Positions 17,000 to 63,828 of a stretch of 64,000 nucleotides of DNA are shown in pieces. How positions within the stretch are numbered: the first letter of the stretch is position 1; every line of letters begins with the position of its first letter. The notes beneath the pieces are model-generated. The model was not told the DNA's origin. It saw only the letters and a program-made list of their open reading frames with translations, and did not search any database. This DNA comes from Girardia tigrina. Lineage: Eukaryota. The stretch is taken from positions 1-64,000 of the forward strand of contig MQRK01250511.1 in assembly GCA_001938485.1 (NCBI GenBank), written 5' to 3'. The position numbers and the translations under genes were made by a program.

Positions 17000-18395
17000 A
17001 ATTTTATTTTTTCGAATGTTACATATTTAATTATATAAAAATTTTAATTTGTACATATTTAATATAACATTCTTTCAAAAATTTTCCTAACATTTTTAAT
17101 TCCTAACATTCCCCCTTTTCTTTAAAATTTTTGAACTTTTCGACATTTCTTACTATTTGTTTTTTCTCTTTATCCTCCAGTTTATAACTCATCTCATGAT
17201 TTTTTTCTATGATGCTGTATGGTCCCTCATATCTGTCATCATCTTTATTTCTTATCTCTTTTTTTACCCACACCTGATCTCCGATATTGAAATTTCGTCG
17301 TGTTTTTCCGTCTGGATACTTGATGTTGTCGTCTGACGTGTTTATTTTATTGCTATACCACTTTAGCCTATCTATTTTTCTATTTACAATACTGCTCCTA
17401 TCCATTTTTCTATTTAAAATTACTTCAACCGAACTTCTTCCAATTGTTTTCTGTCGTGTTGCATTTAATGTGAATTCCACCTCTGGGAGCATATCAGTCC
17501 AACTCGTCTCTTTTCTTTCTTTTAAACTTGCTTGGATATACTCTCGTATCGTTCGGAATTGTCTTTCCACCATACCATTGGTGTTATGGTGGTACGGACT
17601 AGAGAACACTAACTGAATACCTTGTTTTATCATTAATTCTTGTACCTTCTGTGATTCAAAACTTTTCCCACAATCCACATGTATTTCCTTAGGAGCACCA
17701 AATTTTAATATCCATTTTGTCAAACGGTTCAGATGATGTTATCTTGATTGTCTCTTCTTTAGTCTTCGACGTATCTGTTTTTGTTTGTTGACATTCTATA
17801 CAAGTTCCAACTACTTCTTTCACTGTTTTCCGTTCCTCTTCCATTTCAAATTTATCCTTTAAATAATGGTAAACTTTTTCCGCTCCTGCATGAAATAGCA
17901 ATCTGTGTGTCTGTGTGATAAATTCACTTCTTTTCTCTTTGGGTATCCATTCCGTCTTACTGTAGAAAGTAAGCATTTTACTCGCTATAATATCCATGGG
18001 ATGGGGGAGTTCAATGTCCAGGATGACCATATGGAACTTTTCAATCTTGTGTTTCGTCCTAACTATGCGTGTGCATAGGTTATGAAGGGCATGCAATTTC
18101 TTAATGTTCTTGTCTGCAGTTCTCCAGCTTTCCCAGCCTTAGTAGACTACGGAGAATATGCTTGCGTTGATAACTTTCTTCTTATTCCTCAATCAGTTTG
18201 GAGCTTTTCAACAGTGGTCTCAGGTCCCTGATCTTCTGGATTCCTTTCTTGATTCTTTCCATCACTTACGCGTCTACGTTTCCTATTGAAGCGATCGTGG
18301 ATCCTAAGTAACTAAATCTAGAAACCCATGTTAGGAGCGTTTTTGAGTTTATAAAATTTTTGAATTTACAATCTGATCAAATTAATAATTAAACA
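17000..18395 (-). mobile_element. Internally deleted Gypsy LTR retrotransposon (integrase at 17103-18000)
   Basis: H-H-C-C zinc motif, IHVDCG...SPYHHNTNGMVER and GPY. A purine tract precedes a TGTTAGG LTR start at 17108, and the 5' LTR end CCTAACA is at 18329. Same family as 30900-33680. Outer LTR limits are approximate. Confidence 0.85.
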
Positions 18396-18400
18396 ATTAA

Positions 18401-18516
18401 CGGATAACATCAAATAGTAGGTGGACATGAAGTAGTAGGTGTAATGAAGTTTTCAAAAAATTTTCCACCTACTATTAAAATAGTAGGTGGAATCAAATAG
18501 TAGGTGTATCGTTTTT
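18401..18516. repeat. Second copy of the CGGATAACAT/TAGTAGGTG repeat end
   Basis: Similar to 11101-11449 and truncated by a gap. Confidence 0.55.
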
Positions 18517-19084
18517 NNNNNNNNNNNNNNNNNNNNNNNNNNNNNNNNNNNNNNNNNNNNNNNNNNNNNNNNNNNNNNNNNNNNNNNNNNNNNNNNNNNN
18601 NNNNNNNNNNNNNNNNNNNNNNNNNNNNNNNNNNNNNNNNNNNNNNNNNNNNNNNNNNNNNNNNNNNNNNNNNNNNNNNNNNNNNNNNNNNNNNNNNNNN
18701 NNNNNNNNNNNNNNNNNNNNNNNNNNNNNNNNNNNNNNNNNNNNNNNNNNNNNNNNNNNNNNNNNNNNNNNNNNNNNNNNNNNNNNNNNNNNNNNNNNNN
18801 NNNNNNNNNNNNNNNNNNNNNNNNNNNNNNNNNNNNNNNNNNNNNNNNNNNNNNNNNNNNNNNNNNNNNNNNNNNNNNNNNNNNNNNNNNNNNNNNNNNN
18901 NNNNNNNNNNNNNNNNNNNNNNNNNNNNNNNNNNNNNNNNNNNNNNNNNNNNNNNNNNNNNNNNNNNNNNNNNNNNNNNNNNNNNNNNNNNNNNNNNNNN
19001 NNNNNNNNNNNNNNNNNNNNNNNNNNNNNNNNNNNNNNNNNNNNNNNNNNNNNNNNNNNNNNNNNNNNNNNNNNNNNNNNNNNN

Positions 19085-20109
19085 TATTAAACTGATATAT
19101 TAAAATAATGGAATAGTAAATATATACTTTATTCCAAAAAGTTTAAATTATGAGCAACGCCTCTAAGATAATCCAATATTGGTAAATTAATGTATTGCTC
19201 AACAATACGTTCAATCCTCTCACTTACTTTGGCATAAATTTGCGATTAGAATTGTGGGAATTCTTCAATTCTAGAGAGAATTTTAATGCGCTGCAAAATT
19301 AGTTCAACAAAATCTTGATCAGTACGAAATTGATTTATCAAACTAAAATAGTTGGGTGATTGCAAGCGATAGAATTTTGAAACGCACGATGCCAATTTTC
19401 TATTGCATTGTTTGTGAGTGGTAGATGATAAATAACGCGGTCATATACATTCCAACACTGTATTGAATATCAAGGACGTAATCTTCGTTCTCCACGAGCA
19501 CGGCCAATATATGTATCCTCAAAATATGCAAAGACATCATCGAGTTCTGGTTAATCATTAGAAAGATCAAGTAAAACCAAAAAGGCAGTGATAACATCAT
19601 CCACAGGAACAAACGCTATAGCCATTATTGATTTCAGAATGGTTCTAATTTCATCATTGTTTGAATAGAGATCTGGAAGATTTGATGTTTCTTTTATTTT
19701 TTCAAAATTGATTGGTTCCGATGAAAAAAACAGCCTTTAATCCAAACGGATTTTCAGATTTTGAAGTAAAGAATTGAAGATTCATGCTGAAAAAAGTGAG
19801 AGAATATTTTTTAGAAATTTATAATATTTTAAGGTATATTTTTAAAGGTATATTAACGTAAATGGAAAATTTTACAATAAATATTATATTTTAATAAATT
19901 ATTATTCGGTAATAATGGCAAAAAATATCTTAATTAAAAATTTTAAGAAAATTGAATTTATTTAATTATTTAATATTAATATTATTAATTTTTAATATTT
20001 TTTTCTGAAAAAATCCGCGGTAAAGTCGCCCGCTGTAAAGTCGTCCGCGGTAAAGTCGCCCGCGGTAAAGTCGTCCGCGGTAAAGTCGCCGCTGTAAAGT
20101 CGCCTCACC
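19085..20109 (-). mobile_element. Second copy of the Phantom-like MULE (left part lies in the gap)
   Basis: Collinear with 3255-4318, including the same internal deletion structure and the right 15-mer TIR array ending CGCCTCACC. Confidence 0.9.
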
Positions 20110-20289
20110 GTTAAAATCAGATTTTCCGAATTTAATGTAAAAATTATTTTTATTTATAATGGTTTGTGTAAAAAGAAAGTACGAAAGTTCCTCAAAAATA
20201 TTTGTTTAAAAAAACTTAAATTGTTATAGAAAAAAGGTTTTGCGTTAATGACATCTTCTTTTCATCAAGAACCCAATAACCCCCTTAAT

Positions 20290-20505
20290 GCCGGCCTCAA
20301 GCTGGTGCCCAGTAGTAAGGATCCGTGTATCTCCGTTTAGGTTCAAAACTTTGGTTTTACCGATGTTAATTTTGAGACCTAAATCAAGAAAGGATGCATT
20401 TAAAATGTTCAAATTATTTATCAGGTTGTTCTAGTCCGTGTCGATGAGGCAGAGGTCGTCAGCATAGGCTAGTCTGTTGATCTCAAGGAAGCTTCCATTT
20501 AAAAG
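20290..20505 (-). mobile_element. RTE-like reverse transcriptase fragment
   Basis: INRLAYADDLCLID...LGLKINIGKTKVLNLNG, homologous to the LINE at about 59450-59620. Confidence 0.85.
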
Positions 20506-54272: not shown

Positions 54273-55074
54273 TTAGGGTGAACCAAAAGTCTTTTCGTAT
54301 TTTTTATTAAAAATTTAAACATAATTTTACAACAAATAAAAAACATTTAAGTTTCAAAGTAAAGCCCATTTGAATCTATAGCTTGAACCCATCTATGGAC
54401 AAGTTGTGCGATTCCACTGCGGTACCAATCCTTGTTCTTAGAAGCGAAGAACTGGTGATACCCGTTTTCGACCTCGGCCAGATTATTGAAGCTGCGACCA
54501 CGAAGAAAGTGCCATAGAGCGGAAAAGGTGATAGTCGGATGGCGCAAGGTCCGGACTATACGCTGGGTGTGGAAGAAGTTCAAAGGCGTCGAGATTTTTG
54601 CTTTTTTCCTTTGTTTGTTTGGTGGTGTGCGGTTTTACATTGTCCTGTTGTAGAAGAACTCGCTTTCGATTGATCAAAGCGGGGTATTTCTCGCCAAGTG
54701 CCGCATAAATTCGATAAAGTTTGGCGCAATAAAGGTCAGCGTCAATGGTACGACGCTGATTGGAATCAGCTTGGAATCAGCTCGAAGTGAATCACACCTT
54801 CGAAATTCCACCAAACACACAAAAGTGCCTTCCTTGAGAAACGAAACTCTTTTCGCTACTGGTTTCGCCATTTGTCCGGGGTCCAACCATTGATTTGTTG
54901 GTCTGGATTACTGAAGTAAACCCACTTTTCATCGCAAGTTACATTTCGACGGATAAAACGGTCATCGCGCGGATTTTCAAGCAATTTTTGACAAGTTTCG
55001 AAACGCTTTTCGGCTTGAATTTGTGTCAATTCATGAGGCACTTCTCGACATCGTCTATTGATCTTGCCAAGAGC
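54273..55074 (-). mobile_element. mariner element, 3' part (5' part in gap)
   Basis: TA|TTAGGGTGAACC TIR. Motifs PHELT, VTCDEKW, LLQQDNVKPH and HPAYSPDLAPSDYHLF. Confidence 0.93.
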
Positions 55075-55715
55075 NNNNNNNNNNNNNNNNNNNNNNNNNN
55101 NNNNNNNNNNNNNNNNNNNNNNNNNNNNNNNNNNNNNNNNNNNNNNNNNNNNNNNNNNNNNNNNNNNNNNNNNNNNNNNNNNNNNNNNNNNNNNNNNNNN
55201 NNNNNNNNNNNNNNNNNNNNNNNNNNNNNNNNNNNNNNNNNNNNNNNNNNNNNNNNNNNNNNNNNNNNNNNNNNNNNNNNNNNNNNNNNNNNNNNNNNNN
55301 NNNNNNNNNNNNNNNNNNNNNNNNNNNNNNNNNNNNNNNNNNNNNNNNNNNNNNNNNNNNNNNNNNNNNNNNNNNNNNNNNNNNNNNNNNNNNNNNNNNN
55401 NNNNNNNNNNNNNNNNNNNNNNNNNNNNNNNNNNNNNNNNNNNNNNNNNNNNNNNNNNNNNNNNNNNNNNNNNNNNNNNNNNNNNNNNNNNNNNNNNNNN
55501 NNNNNNNNNNNNNNNNNNNNNNNNNNNNNNNNNNNNNNNNNNNNNNNNNNNNNNNNNNNNNNNNNNNNNNNNNNNNNNNNNNNNNNNNNNNNNNNNNNNN
55601 NNNNNNNNNNNNNNNNNNNNNNNNNNNNNNNNNNNNNNNNNNNNNNNNNNNNNNNNNNNNNNNNNNNNNNNNNNNNNNNNNNNNNNNNNNNNNNNNNNNN
55701 NNNNNNNNNNNNTAA

Positions 55716-55756
55716 GACGACGCGTTTCGAGATAATAATAATCCCATCATCAGGTC
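55716..55756 (-). ncRNA. Minimal hammerhead ribozyme, intact core
   Basis: gac-CUGAUGA-U-GGGAU uauuauu AUCUC-GAAA-CGCG-UC-guc. Confidence 0.8.
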
Positions 55757-56268
55757 ACAAAATGCACTAAGCAAGTACACTATATGGAAACTTGCCGAAA
55801 ATAAATAAAATTTATCCAATAAATTATTGGACGAAAATAAATTTATTTCACTTCCTTAAAACTAAGAAAAATGCACTAAATGCAATCAATCTCATTCTCG
55901 CAAACCAACCATTGGCAGCTATCAATTGCCATTTGAAAAAACGATATGTTTTCTCTATCGTTCCGTACTTTACAAGGTAACGGAGACATATGATAAAGAT
56001 GACAACTAACAGCACTCCAAAAGTTAATCTTTGAGATGAAACTTCTCACACTCAATACAATCAACTCAATTTTAGCCTTCCCATCAAATCCAAAACAATC
56101 CGAAATCTCATCGATGCAATTTGACGGAAATGCCTGAAATGGAAATCTGAGAGAACGTTGTGTTCTCTCAACTGTACCAGGTTTGACGCTGGTGACACTC
56201 AGGATAATAACACATTTGGCCAAGTTTCGGCAAGTTTCCATATAGTGTACTTGCTTAGTGCATTTTGT

Positions 56269-57505: not shown

Positions 57506-57549
57506 TAGATTTTTATGCCTCACTTATTACGGATATATATATATATATA

Positions 57550-58108
57550 GTTTAATATTGAGTCTTGTGAACGCAAGTTTAATATTTTGAAAATAAAATT
57601 TGATTAAAACTTGTTTATATAATTATTGGACATGTTTCGATGCTTGCATACATCATCATCAGCAATATTTGGAAATTTTGTATTTTAATATTTGAATAGT
57701 AAAATATTTTAATTGTGCTTAATAATATGATTTTAAAAGGTATATTAAGTTTAAATGGAATAATTTTAAAAATGTATTATAATTTATTAAAGTACTATTA
57801 GGTAATAATGGCAAAAATATTTTAATTAAAAATTTTAAGTATTGAAATAACCTTACTTTGCCCATTCTGAATGTTACTGGATGGATTGTAGTGTCTTATT
57901 AGTAGAGATTCACAGAACTGTCGTTCATAATGTGAATCGAATCCCTTTTGTAGAACAGAAAACTCATCTTTTGAAATGGATGAGGTTCTATCCTTACAAC
58001 ATAAGTTGTGTTGTAACGTAACCAATCATCAAGAACTTTACTCGATTGACTCATTTTAGAGTGCTCACTAATCCGTGATTTGAGATTACGATTTGTCTCT
58101 CCGATGTG
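57550..58108 (-). mobile_element. Penelope 3' fragment (GIY-YIG endonuclease plus pLTR)
   Basis: HIGETNRNLKSRISEH at about 58060-58108, then FSVLQKG...ERQFCESLLIRHYNPSSNIQ. Hammerhead downstream. Ends at (TA)n. Confidence 0.88.
57624..57667 (-). ncRNA. Minimal type I hammerhead ribozyme, intact
   Basis: uauug-CUGAUGA-U-GAUGU augcaa GCAUC-GAAA-CAUG-UC-caaua, with 5-bp stem I, 5-bp stem II and palindromic ACAUGU. Confidence 0.85.
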
Positions 58109-58109
58109 G

Positions 58110-61100
58110 GCCTCCCATCTCTGTAATGGTATTGAGCCTAAGGCTCTTTAGAGGGTCCACCCAAACTAAAGTCCTTAAGGGCCCCCCGATAGATCTCCTA
58201 CGGGGTCAGTGGCCTTCCGGCTCTGAGCAGTCGGCTTGCCAGTAACGAACGACCAACCATGGAACTTGGTACCATGGCCGTACATGCCGTTGGCTGTTAC
58301 GGTGGACGAGTAACAACCGCGAAATGGGCACTTGAATTGTCCTCTTGCAGTCTTGTAATCGGCTGGCAGCGGTATTGTAGGTGCGTCTCTTCGGCATCGT
58401 CGTTCAGCTGTATCCTCGGCATACTCACAGTTGCGTCCGGCAAATGAGGATTGGATTGGTTTGATGTCGGCTCTTCCTCGTTCTCTTCTTCCAAGTTTTC
58501 TTCTCTCTGGGCGTTGGATGTTGGCGCTTCTTGATGATTCTTCTGAATATGAATCCTTAGGAAACCAGTGGTCTTGTATTCCCTTGAACAGTGTTGACAT
58601 TGATATATTCCTTTCTTCTGACGTGGCTGGGCTTTCTACTCTCTCTTCTTCCACGGGATTGGCTCTGCTCTTTGGTGATCTCTTCTGAGATGCCTGTTTA
58701 ACTCCTTCACTTTGTAACAGGCATTCATCTGGCAGCTGTGTTCTTTCAGACGAGGTAGCACCAGTATTAGTGTTTGCTCGTCCCCGATTCTTTGAATTCT
58801 CTTCAATCGGAATACTTCCTCGATCTTTTCATCCATCTTCAGTAAGTTTTCCTGCAGAACGTCTCTTTTAAATTCACCGAAACTGTACTCGGTTCCAAAG
58901 AGCCAGTGAGCATCCACTCTGAGACATTCTACCAGATGTTGCTTTCTCCGACCGCTGATCTTCTTTCCTCCGATGAGTTCGTATCCACTGATCTGCTTGA
59001 CGTTCTCTGGAATTCTCCTAAATCGACCTTGGTATTGTGTACGATTCTTCTTCGCGCGATGATATCCATTGGGCTTTGTAGTCCAATTGATATCTCATCT
59101 ATCCTGATCCTTTCGACTTTCGAAATACCCAAAGTTCGCCGAGTACATAGATTGTGAAATGCTTTTAGCTTTTTCACGTGTACTTCATTTGTCCTCCAAT
59201 TTTCACAGCTGTAGTAAACCACCGGGAATACACAGCTGCTAATTATGTTCTTCTTATTCCGGAGAGACAATTCCAGAGAGACAACAAAATTCAACACTGG
59301 TCTGATCGTCCGTAATTTCGCTGCTCCTTTCTGAATTCTGGCTTTGATGTCCTTACCTGAGCTTCCTCCACTTTCAATTATTGATCCCAGGTAGCAGAAT
59401 TCGTCCACCCATTCTATTCCGGTATTCAGCTCGTCTCTTGCCGTAATGTACTTTGTTCCATTGAGATTCAGGATCTTTGTTTTCCCAATGTTGATTTTGA
59501 GCCCCATATTCAAGAACACAGTGTTGAGACACGTGAGATTCCGTTCGATATTTCCATAGTCTTCGTCCAGTAAGCACAGGTCGTCTGCATAAGCAAGTCT
59601 GTTCACGGTCAGCTCTTCCCCATTGTATTTTAGTTTCACACCACCTGATAGTCCTTCTTTGATCGCGATCTTAATTACATGATCAAAGACAAGGTTGAAT
59701 AGTAGAGGACCCAATACGCAACCCTGACGGACTCCTTTGTCCATACTGAATTTATCCTTTCCAATGCTTCCCGTGAAACCTTCATGANNNNNNNNNNNNN
59801 NNNNNNNNNNNNNNNNNNNNNNNNNNNNNNNNNNNNNNNNNNNNNNNNNNNNNTACGCTGTCAAATGCCTTTTCAAGGTCGATAAAAATAGCAAATACGT
59901 TTATGTTCCGGTATCTGGCCTCTTCTTGTATCTTTCGTAAGATACCAATCGCGTGCGCAGTGCTTCTGTTTGATCTGAAACCAAATTGCCAGTCATCCAA
60001 GATATGCCTCTAGGAATATGCCTCTATAATTATTCAATTCCTTCTTGGAACCCTTTCCTTTGTATAGGATCACGACTTTCGCCGTTTTCCAAGCCTCCGG
60101 GAATTCTGCTCTTTCCTCCCATATGTCCACGAAACATTGCTGTATCTTCTCAGTCAACTGGAGACCGCCCCCTTTATATAGCTCTGGAATGATACCGTTG
60201 TTTCCAGCAGCTGTACAGTTCTTTAGTTGTCCAATAGCGGTACCTACTTCTTCTACGTCCGGTGAGTGGTCTCTTTCGAATGCTTGGCTCTGTTCGATTT
60301 CCACGAGATATTCTCTTTTGCTTTTTCTGAATAGATGTGAGAAGTGCTCTGCTAACACTTCGTCCTTCACACTGCTTTGTACAGAACAGAGAGAGGATTC
60401 CTTCGTTTATCTATTGCAGAGAACACTGAGCTCCGTGTATAACTCAGAAGTCTTGCCTATACATTCTCTGTTGAGAATTCCTTCTATTTCTTGTACAATT
60501 CCCTCAATCCTCTCTCTTTTCCATTTCCTGAGATGCCGCAAGGTGTTTAGTCTTGCAGCCTTCCACGTCGAATATGTTCTTTCACATTTATTCTGAATGT
60601 ATTCTTTCCTTCGCTTCCATTTCTCCTGCAGTAGTGGTTTCAGCTCTTCTATGTGTCCATGTAGCCACCTCTGATTGAGTGGGACTTTTTTCTTTCTGTA
60701 TCTTTCTGAAGTCTTCAAAATGACCTCCACATCATCCCAGTTCTCGACATTCGGACAAGCTTGTCCTATGTCACTACTGATGGCCACTTTGTTGTTCTGC
60801 AAGGAGAATCTGTCAATTTTTCCTTTTCCTTTCTTTCTTCTATCATTCGCCAACTTGAGTACCTTATTGTTGTTGGTGATCCATATCGTTAACACGACTA
60901 AGTCGTGGTCAGAGCCGCAGTCAAAATTCGGGTAGGTTTTGACATTGCTTATCCTGTTGCATCTGCTCTTTTGAGACAGGAATAAGTCCAGTAGTTGTCT
61001 TTTTCTCGTTGCCGGGTATGTCCAGTTAGTTCTCTGCGCCAACTTATGTTTGTAGAAGGTGTTCTCTACTCGTAAGTTGCACGCGTCAGCAAGATCTATT

Positions 61101-61871
61101 AAAAGATCTCCGTTTTCTGATGTTCCTGTTGAACTAGTATAACACCCGACAGTCTTTCCGTTTTCCTCCGTCCAATTAAGTCGACAGTTGACGTCGCCTC
61201 CAACTATCAGTTCGTGTTTCCTCTTATCAGCCTTAGTCGTCGCCCTTTCGACATGTTCTTGCAGTAATGCGAAGAACTCTTCCTTTTCCTTACTTGAGTG
61301 TCCGCTGTCAGTCGGAACGTATACCCCCACCACTGTGATCGACCTTTGGGGTATATGACAGAGGAACACTCTCTCACTGATCACTTCGAATTCGATGTTC
61401 ATTGAATCCCCAGATTTTATCATCATGGTTACGCCTTTCTCCCTTATGCTACTCGTACTGCCACTATGATGGATCCTCCAATCCCCGAAAGAGGCAATGT
61501 CGGTTCCGATCCAGTGCGTCTCTGTGAGTATACACATATCAATTTTCAGTTTTTCGAAAATACTGACGATGTTTAGTACCTTTTCATCGGTTAAGCCTGG
61601 AATATTCAAAGTTCCAACCCTCAGTTCACTGCAAGTGGAATCCTTAACGAGGGATCCCCCTCTCGGGAGCTTAATGACTTTGGGTACTTCCAGACCCCTT
61701 GTTTGAGTTTTAAAAGCTATGTATTAGCGAAGGATAGGGTTGCTAGCCCCGTCGGTCCGTCCACTCATTTAGCCTAGATCAAGGGGACCCCCATTCTATT
61801 TCTACAAAGGGAAGAGACCCTCTTTCTAGTTCCCAGGATACACCACGGGGAGGCGAGTGACACTGTATCCC
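58110..61871 (-). mobile_element. Near full-length RTE-clade LINE (APE endonuclease, RT, C-terminal C2H2-like finger)
   Basis: APE motifs GTLNI, ILTETH, VYVPT, VGGDVN, LLDLF and SDH. RT motifs NYRGI, QFGFRSNRST, FIDLEKAFDSV, GVRQGCVLGPLLFN, YADD and FCYLGS. C-terminal CPFRGC...GH...H. A few frameshifts and one gap. Confidence 0.93.
61761..61871 (-). ncRNA. HDV-like self-cleaving ribozyme at the LINE 5' end
   Basis: P1 GGGAUAC/GUAUCCU with G1.U wobble; P2 UCACUC/GAGUGG; P3 GCC/GGU; L3 UCCCCGU; P1.1 CC/GG; P4 closed by CUAG/CUAG; J4/2 GCUAAAU with the catalytic C at 61772. Confidence 0.92.
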
Positions 61872-61872
61872 T

Positions 61873-63828
61873 TACAATGACATCGCAGTCAATGTCGCCG
61901 AAATGCCAGTAAATCGAGTTTTCAAAGTGATGCACTGCTTCGGATTAGAGGCGAAAGATCTAGTTCCCATAGACGGCGGTCGAGTGTTAGGTCTCTTGGT
62001 TAAGGTGGACAAAGGTGGGAAATTACGGTGGCGCCGTGACGGAGAAGTTCCATTACTGTCAGAACAAGTCCCTCGCCCTAATTTATTCACGTGGACCGGT
62101 CGGTTGGTGAGACATTACCCGGTCTGTGGTTGGTTATGGCCGGCGTGCAGCATCATCAAAAGGATAGCCAGCGATTGTGGATGGGACATAGTTGTGGAAC
62201 CTTAAATTGCAGAAATAGCTTGGCAGTTGGCGCACCGGGTCTAAACGGAAGATCCAGTCAAGGGCGAATTGGAGGTACCACAAATCAAGAGAGAGCGCGT
62301 GTGGTGCGACACAAGCTCGATTGCAGTCGGTATATGCGTCGAAATAGGCGGCGTTGTCGTCGAGGACGCCTGATGGTTGCGTCAAAAAGACGACACTAAC
62401 CACATCAATTTAGCTGAGTAGGACGCCGCAAACCGTGCACTCAAAGAGGGAGTCAAATGGGGAATTCGGGAATCGGAATTATTAACCGACTCAGCAACAG
62501 TTACCAAATGGCTCTCATCGACACTGTCGGGACGCGAATCGATTAGATCTCAGGCACTCAGTGAGATTCTAATCAGGCGGCCGGTAGGCCTATTTAAGCA
62601 AGTCGTCGAGGAAGAGAAATTGAAAGTCACCACAACACTGGTCCGATCAGAAGAAAACAAAGCGGACGCGCTGACTCGAGTTTTAGCCAGCTGGTGGACG
62701 TTGGCGAGAAATCCCGCAGTGGCAGCAGCAGTAACTGTCAGAGGTCAATGTGAATCAGTGGACGGTCTTCAGCAACTCCACGAAATGCATCATTTCGGAG
62801 TGAGAAGATCGATGTTCCTAGCTAGAAAAATATGGGGTCCGGCCAAGGTGTCAGAAGACCAAATCAGAGCAGTGATTCAGGAGTGCGAGCAGTGTGCATC
62901 AATCGACCCATCGCCAATTCAGTGGGAGAAAGGTGATGACGGGGTAAGGATATTGTGGATCCGAGTTGCTGTGGATGTAACACATGTTGGGGCGGCAACA
63001 TTTCTGACCATGGTGGACTGTCGCCCCGGGCGATTTATGATATGCGCCAAATTGCGATGGAAAGTGAAGCGGACATCTGTTCCGTAATGAACAGCGTCCG
63101 GAACGAATTCGGTCCACCAGAGGAAGTAATTCTCGATAACTATTTCACTTTCAGGGGGTCGGGCGTGTCGAGATTGTTAGAACGAGTGGGTATTGAAGCT
63201 CACTTCAGATGCATGAACCGTCCGAGCGGAAATGGAATTGTGGAACGCAGTCACAGGACTATTAAACGAATGGTTGCTCGGTGGGTGAAATGGTTGCGTG
63301 GTATAATGCAACGCCAAACGCAAGTGGCGTCATTCCAGCCTCAACTATCTTTGCACACAGACGGAGGCTATTATTGCCGAAGGTATTCAATCTCACTAAC
63401 ATCAGTCGGGGTCGAGAAATACGAAGTAAGGTATTTTGAATCGGAGATGAAGTATTTGTGAAACCGGCACCAACGTATTCGTGCATGTCACAGTGAAGAC
63501 GCGCAACCATTACCGGGTTGCACTTGCCGCATCAAGTGGAAGTCGACAGCAGACCCTACCACGTAAGTCACGTGCGATTGGCCCCACCCGCGGCAAGCAA
63601 TGATGATGTCGGACGAATCGAGATCAGGGATACGGGCGATCTGCGTGCGATTAGTGAAAGTAACGATCGAGACGGGCCAGAAAGAGCTGGTGGGGCGGCC
63701 ACAAAGAGCTATTCGCTGTCTAGCGAGATTCGTGGAATTCGTCTGTACTGGAATTCAAGCCAGTGTCGGTGATCGGGTCCCCCCTGCTCAAGTGATATCT
63801 ACTTGTGTGTCTTGAGGACAGGAGGGCG
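61873..63828 (+). mobile_element. Gypsy-type pol 3' part (RNase H, integrase) and polypurine tract
   Basis: VWCDTSSIAVG...HINLAE...LTDSATV...NKADALTRV; HEMHHFG...CEQC; VAVDVTH...ILDN...SGNGIVERSHRTIK. Purine tract at 63814-63828. Confidence 0.9.

Follow-up and report, generated by a model that had tools for sequence, protein, structure and literature searches.

We identified a LINE on the minus strand of the window (the whole 64-kb stretch of Girardia tigrina DNA analysed here) that begins at the first base of a 111-nt fold which is, by its anatomy, an HDV-like ribozyme. Both this LINE and a ribozyme-headed SINE insert after the motif GTG-N10-TAC with ~9-bp duplications. The ribozyme marks where the element starts at its 5' end and likely cleaves itself, and the finger-tailed lineage that uses this motif probably evolved for 28S rDNA and spills over into a look-alike site in Penelope-like elements. 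The window LINE probably lives as an rDNA parasite in the manner of R2, with an APE enzyme as its basis. RTE-type LINEs that carry ribozymes are already known, and the ribozyme by itself is a further member of that known class; the targeting habit is the new part.

Ribozyme, leader and flanks of the window copy

An initial annotation of this DNA, made from the letters alone, had described a nested double pseudoknot with a G1·U wobble and a catalytic C; every core pair of that fold was found, with the C75 equivalent at 61772 (Table 1). An HDV descriptor made for this analysis matched once in the whole window, and once in total over 300 mononucleotide shuffles (GC-richer 5.9 kb, both strands). 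The suggested search with Infernal and HDV models picked the same stretch but scored it below the gathering score (RF02682, 25.8 bits against 44, E 0.17), and other family copies, at 25-34 bits, also fell under 44. The energy of the nested-only fold is unremarkable (z -0.49), as is to be expected because the active fold is a pseudoknot. P4, annotated as an enlarged multi-hairpin domain, folds instead as one long interrupted hairpin whose closing pair has a probability of 0.92 in the window copy and above 0.5 in 49 of 56 copies, and the multi-hairpin form was rejected.

Table 1. Features of the LINE copy and its flanks, in window positions
Feature	Position	Strand	Remark
HDV-like ribozyme (by anatomy), 111 nt	61761..61871	-	G1 at 61871, the LINE 5' end
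P1	61871-61865 with 61841-61835	-	7 bp, G1·U
P1 5' strand	61865..61871	-	first six bases identical to 28S where the LINE inserts
P2	61860-61855 with 61766-61761	-	
P3	61854-61852 with 61844-61842	-	
L3	61851-61845	-	
P1.1 GG	61834-61833	-	
P4 domain, 56 nt, single long interrupted hairpin	61774..61829	-	from folding
P4 closing helix	61829-61826 with 61777-61774	-	
Predicted catalytic C (C75 equivalent)	61772	-	in 51 of 51 copies
A78, conserved A in J4/2	61769	-	
Two extra J4/2 bases, before P2	61768-61767	-	
14-codon upstream ORF	61724..61768	-	AUG inside ribozyme (J4/2-P2), UAA 61726-61724, in frame with main ORF
Single APE-RT ORF, broken	58175..61723	-	GTLNI motif at 61615
Three C2H2-type zinc fingers, C-terminus	58259..58734	-	coordinates read by hand
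Assembly gap (N) inside element	59788..59853	.	
3' UTR	58106..58174	-	ends at 58106, without poly(A) or tandem-repeat tail
9-mer, the target-site duplication of intact copies	58097..58105	-	here on the 3' side only
Penelope-like GIY-YIG gene, downstream half	57540..58105	-	begins at I of Y-I-G-E-T
Extra base, position -1 of the 5' junction	61872	-	not Gypsy-derived
Gypsy-type LTR retrotransposon remnant (RT end, integrase)	61873..63460	+	unrelated flank, cut at junction

The proposal that G1 defines the 5' end of the family was confirmed by comparison with the 39 other best-scoring copies out of 1347 candidates, a choice biased to long matches: all 39 start no more than 6 nt from G1, 25 of them at the very same G (61871), and the sequence 5' of G1 in these copies is unrelated or consists of target flanks. 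Of 51 distinct 5' ends, all 51 keep C75, 49 each keep P3, P1.1 and the U20 and G25 of L3, 46 keep P1 with G1·U, and 39 keep P2. Because the compared copies are ~94% similar and similarity was the ground for choosing them, conservation within the family is weak evidence of selection. A better indication of selection comes from a 414-bp non-coding, SINE-like family (L146:2655-3068, minus strand; also L149-L178 and L207-L230) with an HDV-like ribozyme of its own, in which P1, P2, P3 and one P1.1 pair differ in sequence from the LINE and the predicted pairing is kept. The SINE ribozyme has a C1-G pair in place of G1·U and carries no AUG, and the SINE uses the same target motif as the LINE, also with ~9-bp duplications. 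Its derivation from an internally deleted LINE copy was rejected, as alignment gave only chance matches of 9-12 bases.

Alternatively, the fold might no longer cleave, being either a relic or an element that serves only translation or stability, with the sharp 5' end coming from an internal promoter. The sub-threshold Rfam scores, the two extra J4/2 bases and an unconstrained nested fold differing by ~3 kcal/mol from the active one are in keeping with this, as are contigs spanning G1 in two RNA-labelled runs, which may be uncleaved RNA or DNA (Logan contigs, unable to show RNA ends); against it, the catalytic-core positions are all kept, the LINE/SINE differences are paired, the 5' end falls at the bond predicted to be cleaved, and a SINE that codes for nothing retains the fold, which makes a non-cleaving relic very improbable. 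Putative self-cleavage before G1, the reading we prefer, would likely free the LINE RNA from a longer host transcript. Among the Logan contigs searched for LINE RNA, no run contained half of the query words.

Some 5' junctions carry further sequence. At L239:1137-1241 (minus strand), and also at L013 and L067, ~80 nt from the 5' part of 5S rRNA (Rfam RF00001, 56 bits) lies between the Penelope duplication and the LINE 5' end, and looks like a template jump of the kind described for R2. A tRNA-like sequence just 5' of G1 at L259:455-513 (minus strand; RF00005, 33.5 bits) would be either a neighbouring tRNA gene or a second template jump. A separate element (L258; L315:2510-5527) joins a window-type ribozyme core to a different leader and an ORF 47-49% like the proteins P0001/P0002, possibly a swap of ribozymes between families.

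The leader was annotated as having no in-frame AUG before the endonuclease motif GTLNI. We found one at 61768, composed of the two extra J4/2 bases and the next base; it opens a 14-codon reading frame, and the long ORF follows the UAA of this frame directly and in frame, 38 nt from the ribozyme. The AUG and the stop after 14 codons are present in 44 of 51 distinct 5' ends, and the upstream ORF is retained, with changed sequence, in a sister subfamily (79% protein identity); a third family has instead an in-frame AUG ahead of the endonuclease motif. A near-cognate CUG at 61693 is also kept.

The window copy itself is decayed. Besides the N gap, its ORF has an in-frame stop near 60408, a deletion near 60005 and frameshifts near 59010 and near 58369, and the halves of the element on either side of the gap may belong to different copies. 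At the 5' junction the Gypsy flank is interrupted inside its RT. It had been annotated as starting right beyond G1, and a Gypsy remnant does run from 61873, but the base at 61872 is not Gypsy sequence, differing from all 11 of 11 other copies of this LTR family. No duplication is shared by the two flanks of the window copy, and the missing upstream Penelope half was not found up to contig position 69999. The 5' end still derives from an RNA that began at G1, as had been inferred; the accompanying claim of a full-length insertion fares less well, one clean event not being demonstrated by a copy with mismatched flanks and an N gap. A comparable mismatch of flanks occurs in L065, which is also gapped. 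Insertion of the window copy into Gypsy as a normal target was rejected, the junction having neither motif nor duplication and no upstream Penelope half being nearby. A reading of the Penelope half as a 3' tail belonging to the LINE was also rejected, since what flanks the 5' side is the corresponding upstream half, and copies outside the target end without any Penelope sequence. Elsewhere in the window, positions 17950-20499 (minus strand) hold fragments of another related LINE RT (41-58% to P0001), and 55055-55855, beside an N gap, a transposase fragment that we take from its motifs to be mariner-like.

A finger-tailed branch beside RTE-type LINEs

The full-length relative P0001 (93% to the window copy) encodes 1145 aa from an internal Met, with APE, RT and three C2H2-type fingers. 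Pfam recognises RVT_1 and Exo_endo_phos_2 on the LINE ORF, a single APE-RT frame with the APE domain N-terminal, and there is no ORF1; the restriction-like endonuclease that follows the RT in R2 is absent. A predicted structure (pLDDT 81.9) has L1 ORF2p as its best fold match, and the RT is most like RTE-type relatives (up to E 1e-68, versus 1e-24 for L1 ORF2p).

The nearest annotated relatives are RTE-type, many bearing DUF6451 and some named CFDP2. In an RT tree of hand-picked rows, built without an outgroup or named reference elements, 22 of the 48 rows, the finger-tailed proteins, group as a branch of their own (support 100/98) beside DUF6451- and CFDP2-type rows. Fingers 1 and 2 keep their Cys and His residues unchanged in 24 of 24 relatives, none of 44 relatives has a zf-RVT/CCHC match in Pfam, and the finger-tailed LINE has no DUF6451 match. 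Its 3' end is fixed and free of short tandem repeats. LINEs of the RTE clade typically end in short tandem repeats, and those of the R1 and Tx1 clades typically carry ORF1 and a CCHC or zf-RVT C-terminal domain. The name RTE LINE, as first given to this element, suits its single APE-RT ORF and its nearest relatives, but is only approximate for a separate zinc-finger-tailed branch.

Insertion sites in 28S rDNA and Penelope-like elements

GTG-N10-TAY occurs within 18 nt of the 5' end at 24 of 40 distinct non-Penelope sites, compared with 52 of 7774 random positions (0.67%), and 16 of the 40 sites lack the exact motif. Other spacings between GTG and TAY were seen at 0-3 of the 40 sites, except N13 at 7. 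Where the SINE insertion point is fixed by the duplication alone, GTG at -16 to -14 and TA at -3 and -2 are present at all 11 of 11 sites. Duplications of 9-13 bp flank 6 of 10 LINE copies with both ends (20 fetched regions). The spacers of off-target sites do not retain 28S-like bases. Target specificity is loose, as 26 of the 100 listed LINE 5' ends and most SINE copies lie elsewhere. The same coding flank, neither Penelope nor 28S, recurs after LINE 3' ends (3' flanks of L084 and L095, also C121109) and is possibly a third multicopy target.

The recurring junction 9-mer is 28S sequence. L272 shows a short element bracketed by two copies of this 9-mer, after a perfect GTG-N10-TAC, inside Rfam-matched 28S; by our own count the cut falls between positions 2818 and 2819 of model RF02543, at a site that matches the Rfam eukaryotic consensus and that we take to adjoin the A2451 equivalent and to lie several hundred bases downstream of the R2 site. 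RT1 and RT2 of Anopheles insert antisense near the same 28S segment. At L313 a SINE, a full-length sister LINE, a second SINE and a further element stand between the 28S halves, with five copies of the 9-mer, and sister families more generally form sense-strand stacks at this one 28S base carrying the motif. All 11 matches to the downstream 28S half are preceded by non-28S sequence, mostly recognisable element ends. The upstream 17-mer continues as 28S in one of 24 matches; on its upstream side, with flanks scored by eye against L272, 12 of the 24 show long 28S, three short 28S and nine only the 17-mer (five of these nine in satellite). Intact rDNA is nearly absent from the assembly, and the 28S junction counts are therefore not occupancy.

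Most 28S cases belong to sister families, the window's own subfamily having one 28S-type junction only (L253). A third family (28% in the C-terminal part; the L253 head family, 45%) adjoins the same 28S base, including at L273, and so do two metagenome relatives from unrelated samples, L322 (29%) and L324 (27%), whose proteins a quick tree assigns to the base and the interior of the finger-tailed branch. Of 80 metagenome loci, these two end at the 28S base; 6 of the 8 top relatives show no 28S junction, and the ribozyme descriptor matched none of the 80. Independent copies with a fixed junction at this one rDNA base are found at L272, L291, L313, L255/L296, L273, L322 and L324. Many LINE and SINE copies lie outside rDNA.

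Further sequences were seen at or near this site. At least three more element families meet the same 28S base (L279, L285, L294, L295; L264, L270, L278, L293; L266, L271), and one of these has, close to the 5' end, an L3-like UCCUCG loop, which the HDV descriptor does not parse. In L275, L282, L288, L289 and L297, a tandem repeat carries the exact 26-bp 28S target (motif and duplication) in a non-rDNA context, and may act as a decoy or represent another non-autonomous element. Two 28S variants downstream of the site (L264-L274), both with insertions, suggest two rDNA types in the genome. In the metagenome relative L320, repeats close to the 5' end resemble the 28S target, and the contig ends in 28S-like sequence.

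Exact LINE 3' ends run directly into the I-G-E-T codons (YIG) of Penelope-like elements in 267 of 787 cases, a minimum, since flanks that have decayed escape exact matching; in a flank-blind sample, 15 of 30 LINE 3' ends lie at the Penelope site. A hand count of the first 100 of 167 listed LINE 5' ends, found with a search pattern whose leading W slightly favours Penelope flanks, gave 68 with Penelope flanks, 6 that follow a sibling element and 26 of other kinds. The insertions are in sense, interrupt the same codon in at least two host families, and coexist with 979 exact empty Penelope sites. The host gene has an RT ~650 bp 5' of the site (RVT_1, E 8.8e-6) and, in 1 of 4 fragments, GIY-YIG (E 4e-4), both just under the Pfam curated cut-offs, and Atlas places it with GIY-YIG clusters at 0.96; most host fragments gave no GIY-YIG match in Pfam, and no full-length Penelope host ORF was found among host copies that are mostly N.

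The window subfamily could on these counts be a Penelope specialist, derived from the 28S lineage and selected to insert into the GIY-YIG gene and thereby disable it, exploiting Penelope transcription, with the ribozyme freeing it from Penelope RNA. Its Penelope share of 34-68% stands against ~14-19 Penelope junctions, beside one direct 28S junction, in the first 100 of 318 listed ends of the 79% sister subfamily (hand count), and against 0 of 37 third-family 3' ends, two of which have the exact 28S 9-mer and most of which lie at neither target; the recurrence in sense at one codon of different hosts and the single 28S-type junction of the window subfamily point the same way. We nevertheless consider such specialisation unlikely: sequence likeness alone predicts an excess at Penelope, rDNA is under-assembled, the P1 strand matches 28S and not Penelope, and the commonest Penelope junction has G at position -1. 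G at -1 is the least favourable base for HDV cleavage.

That commonest junction is identical among many copies, as would be expected if only a short motif were preferred, with no evolved rDNA targeting, and if the pile-ups came from targets that are multicopy, tolerated or re-amplified with their host. The many dispersed insertions at the bare motif also fit this explanation, as do the 10^4-10^5 motif sites estimated per genome (from a small sample). Penelope 5' junctions nonetheless differ from one another in length and in the bases added, a sign of many independent events, several families stack at the 28S base, relatives at 27-29% from unrelated samples use that same base, and P1 strands match 28S; a bare motif preference is accordingly quite improbable.

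The 28S and Penelope sites have 12 of 17 upstream bases in common, and the pattern they share has 2853 genome matches (control 544); counted by hand, 92 among the first 100 proved to be Penelope-type. On the ribozyme side, the first 6 bases of the LINE equal 28S, and the P1 5' strand of the SINE is identical to the final 7 bases of the 28S duplication. From the shared bases, the abundance of the pattern and the agreement of P1 with 28S, we read this as a lineage born at 28S whose loose specificity has made Penelope its main landing place in this genome. The off-target spacers, in which 28S-like bases are not retained, count against this reading, and a preference for the full site is presumed.

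Proposed cycle and relation to known elements

Taken together, these features suggest the following cycle. A Pol I or host-element promoter would read through the copy, and the ribozyme would cut the LINE RNA out. The uncapped RNA would be translated from the ribozyme leader by way of the AUG-uORF-UAA unit, the main ORF being started by reinitiation at a near-cognate codon such as CUG 61693, or reached by read-through. The C-terminal fingers would bind the GTG that lies a helical turn upstream, the APE domain would nick the bottom strand after TAC, and the terminal AC of the RNA, which equals the last two bases of the target, would pair with the primer end, the top strand being cut ~9 bp downstream. 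As the recognised motif lies upstream of the cut it would survive insertion, so that later LINEs and SINEs could stack at the same place. The ribozyme-headed SINE would use the LINE protein in trans.

A review covers the HDV-like ribozymes of RTE, R2 and L1Tc elements, for which roles in release and as IRES-like elements have been proposed (PMC6765202). The RTE ribozymes covered there have, like the one described here, a double-pseudoknot core at the 5' end and a proposed function in release from a co-transcript and in the translation of uncapped RNA. They differ in that J4/2 of the present ribozyme has two extra bases forming the AUG, and the RTEs of that review sit in introns or behind LTR elements, whereas the present LINE is sequence-directed.

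For R2 and its relatives, published accounts describe ribozymes using 28S sequence in P1 (PMC3774820), ribozyme-headed SIDEs and template jumps to small RNAs (PMC3414825), and R8, R9 and non-specific R2s (PMC5035012). As portrayed there, R2 and SIDEs have in common with the LINE a sense insertion in 28S, a single ORF, a 5' HDV-like ribozyme, zinc fingers that recognise DNA, non-autonomous partners headed by a ribozyme, small RNAs joined at 5' junctions and a P1 related to 28S. R2 has a restriction-like endonuclease and N-terminal fingers, in contrast to the APE domain and C-terminal fingers here, and the present LINE uses another 28S site, makes a ~9-bp duplication and is far looser in its specificity.

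A 2015 survey assigned target specificity among APE LINEs to just two clades, R1 and Tx1 (PMC4640811). The elements it treats have APE, multicopy targets including 28S and transposons, fixed-length duplications and tandem stacking in common with the present LINE, which differs in having no ORF1, no zf-RVT/CCHC match and RTE-type elements as its nearest annotated relatives. Supplement S6 of the same survey shows LIN9_SM, a NeSL-related element of the planarian Schmidtea, inserting antisense in the same 28S segment, ~5 nt from the present nick; besides its orientation, LIN9_SM is unlike the present LINE in its T-rich tail, in the lack of a duplication in the figure and in its restriction-like endonuclease lineage. 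RTE-type elements are treated as random inserters in a further source, which lists RTE-1_MD as such (PMC13708176). With ordinary RTE-clade LINEs, such as the DUF6451-bearing and CFDP2-named relatives, the present one shares a single APE-RT ORF, a short 5' leader and the most similar RT; it stands apart from them in its separate supported branch, its 2-3 C-terminal fingers, the lack of DUF6451 and of a tandem-repeat tail, and its sequence-directed insertion. No RTE-type element specific for 28S or Penelope was found in the open literature, Repbase, subscription journals and bioRxiv supplements lying outside the search.

With moderate confidence, these comparisons may be extended to a widespread RTE-group lineage, so far undescribed, that independently came to lead the R2 lifestyle on APE and C-terminal fingers, with ribozyme release from a 28S co-transcript and finger recognition of a conserved 28S site next to the peptidyl-transferase centre; it would be a third origin of target specificity among APE elements, after R1 and Tx1, with one branch having moved most of its insertions in this genome to the catalytic YIG codons of Penelope. 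If true, this would make the LINE a parasite of a parasite, with ribozyme-headed SINEs of its own. The AUG-uORF-UAA unit inside the ribozyme offers a handle on how uncapped LINE RNAs cut by a ribozyme come to be translated. An APE LINE with seemingly separable C-terminal fingers on 28S would allow tests of how target specificity arises, loosens and shifts, and would provide a natural comparison with R2-based gene insertion into rDNA.
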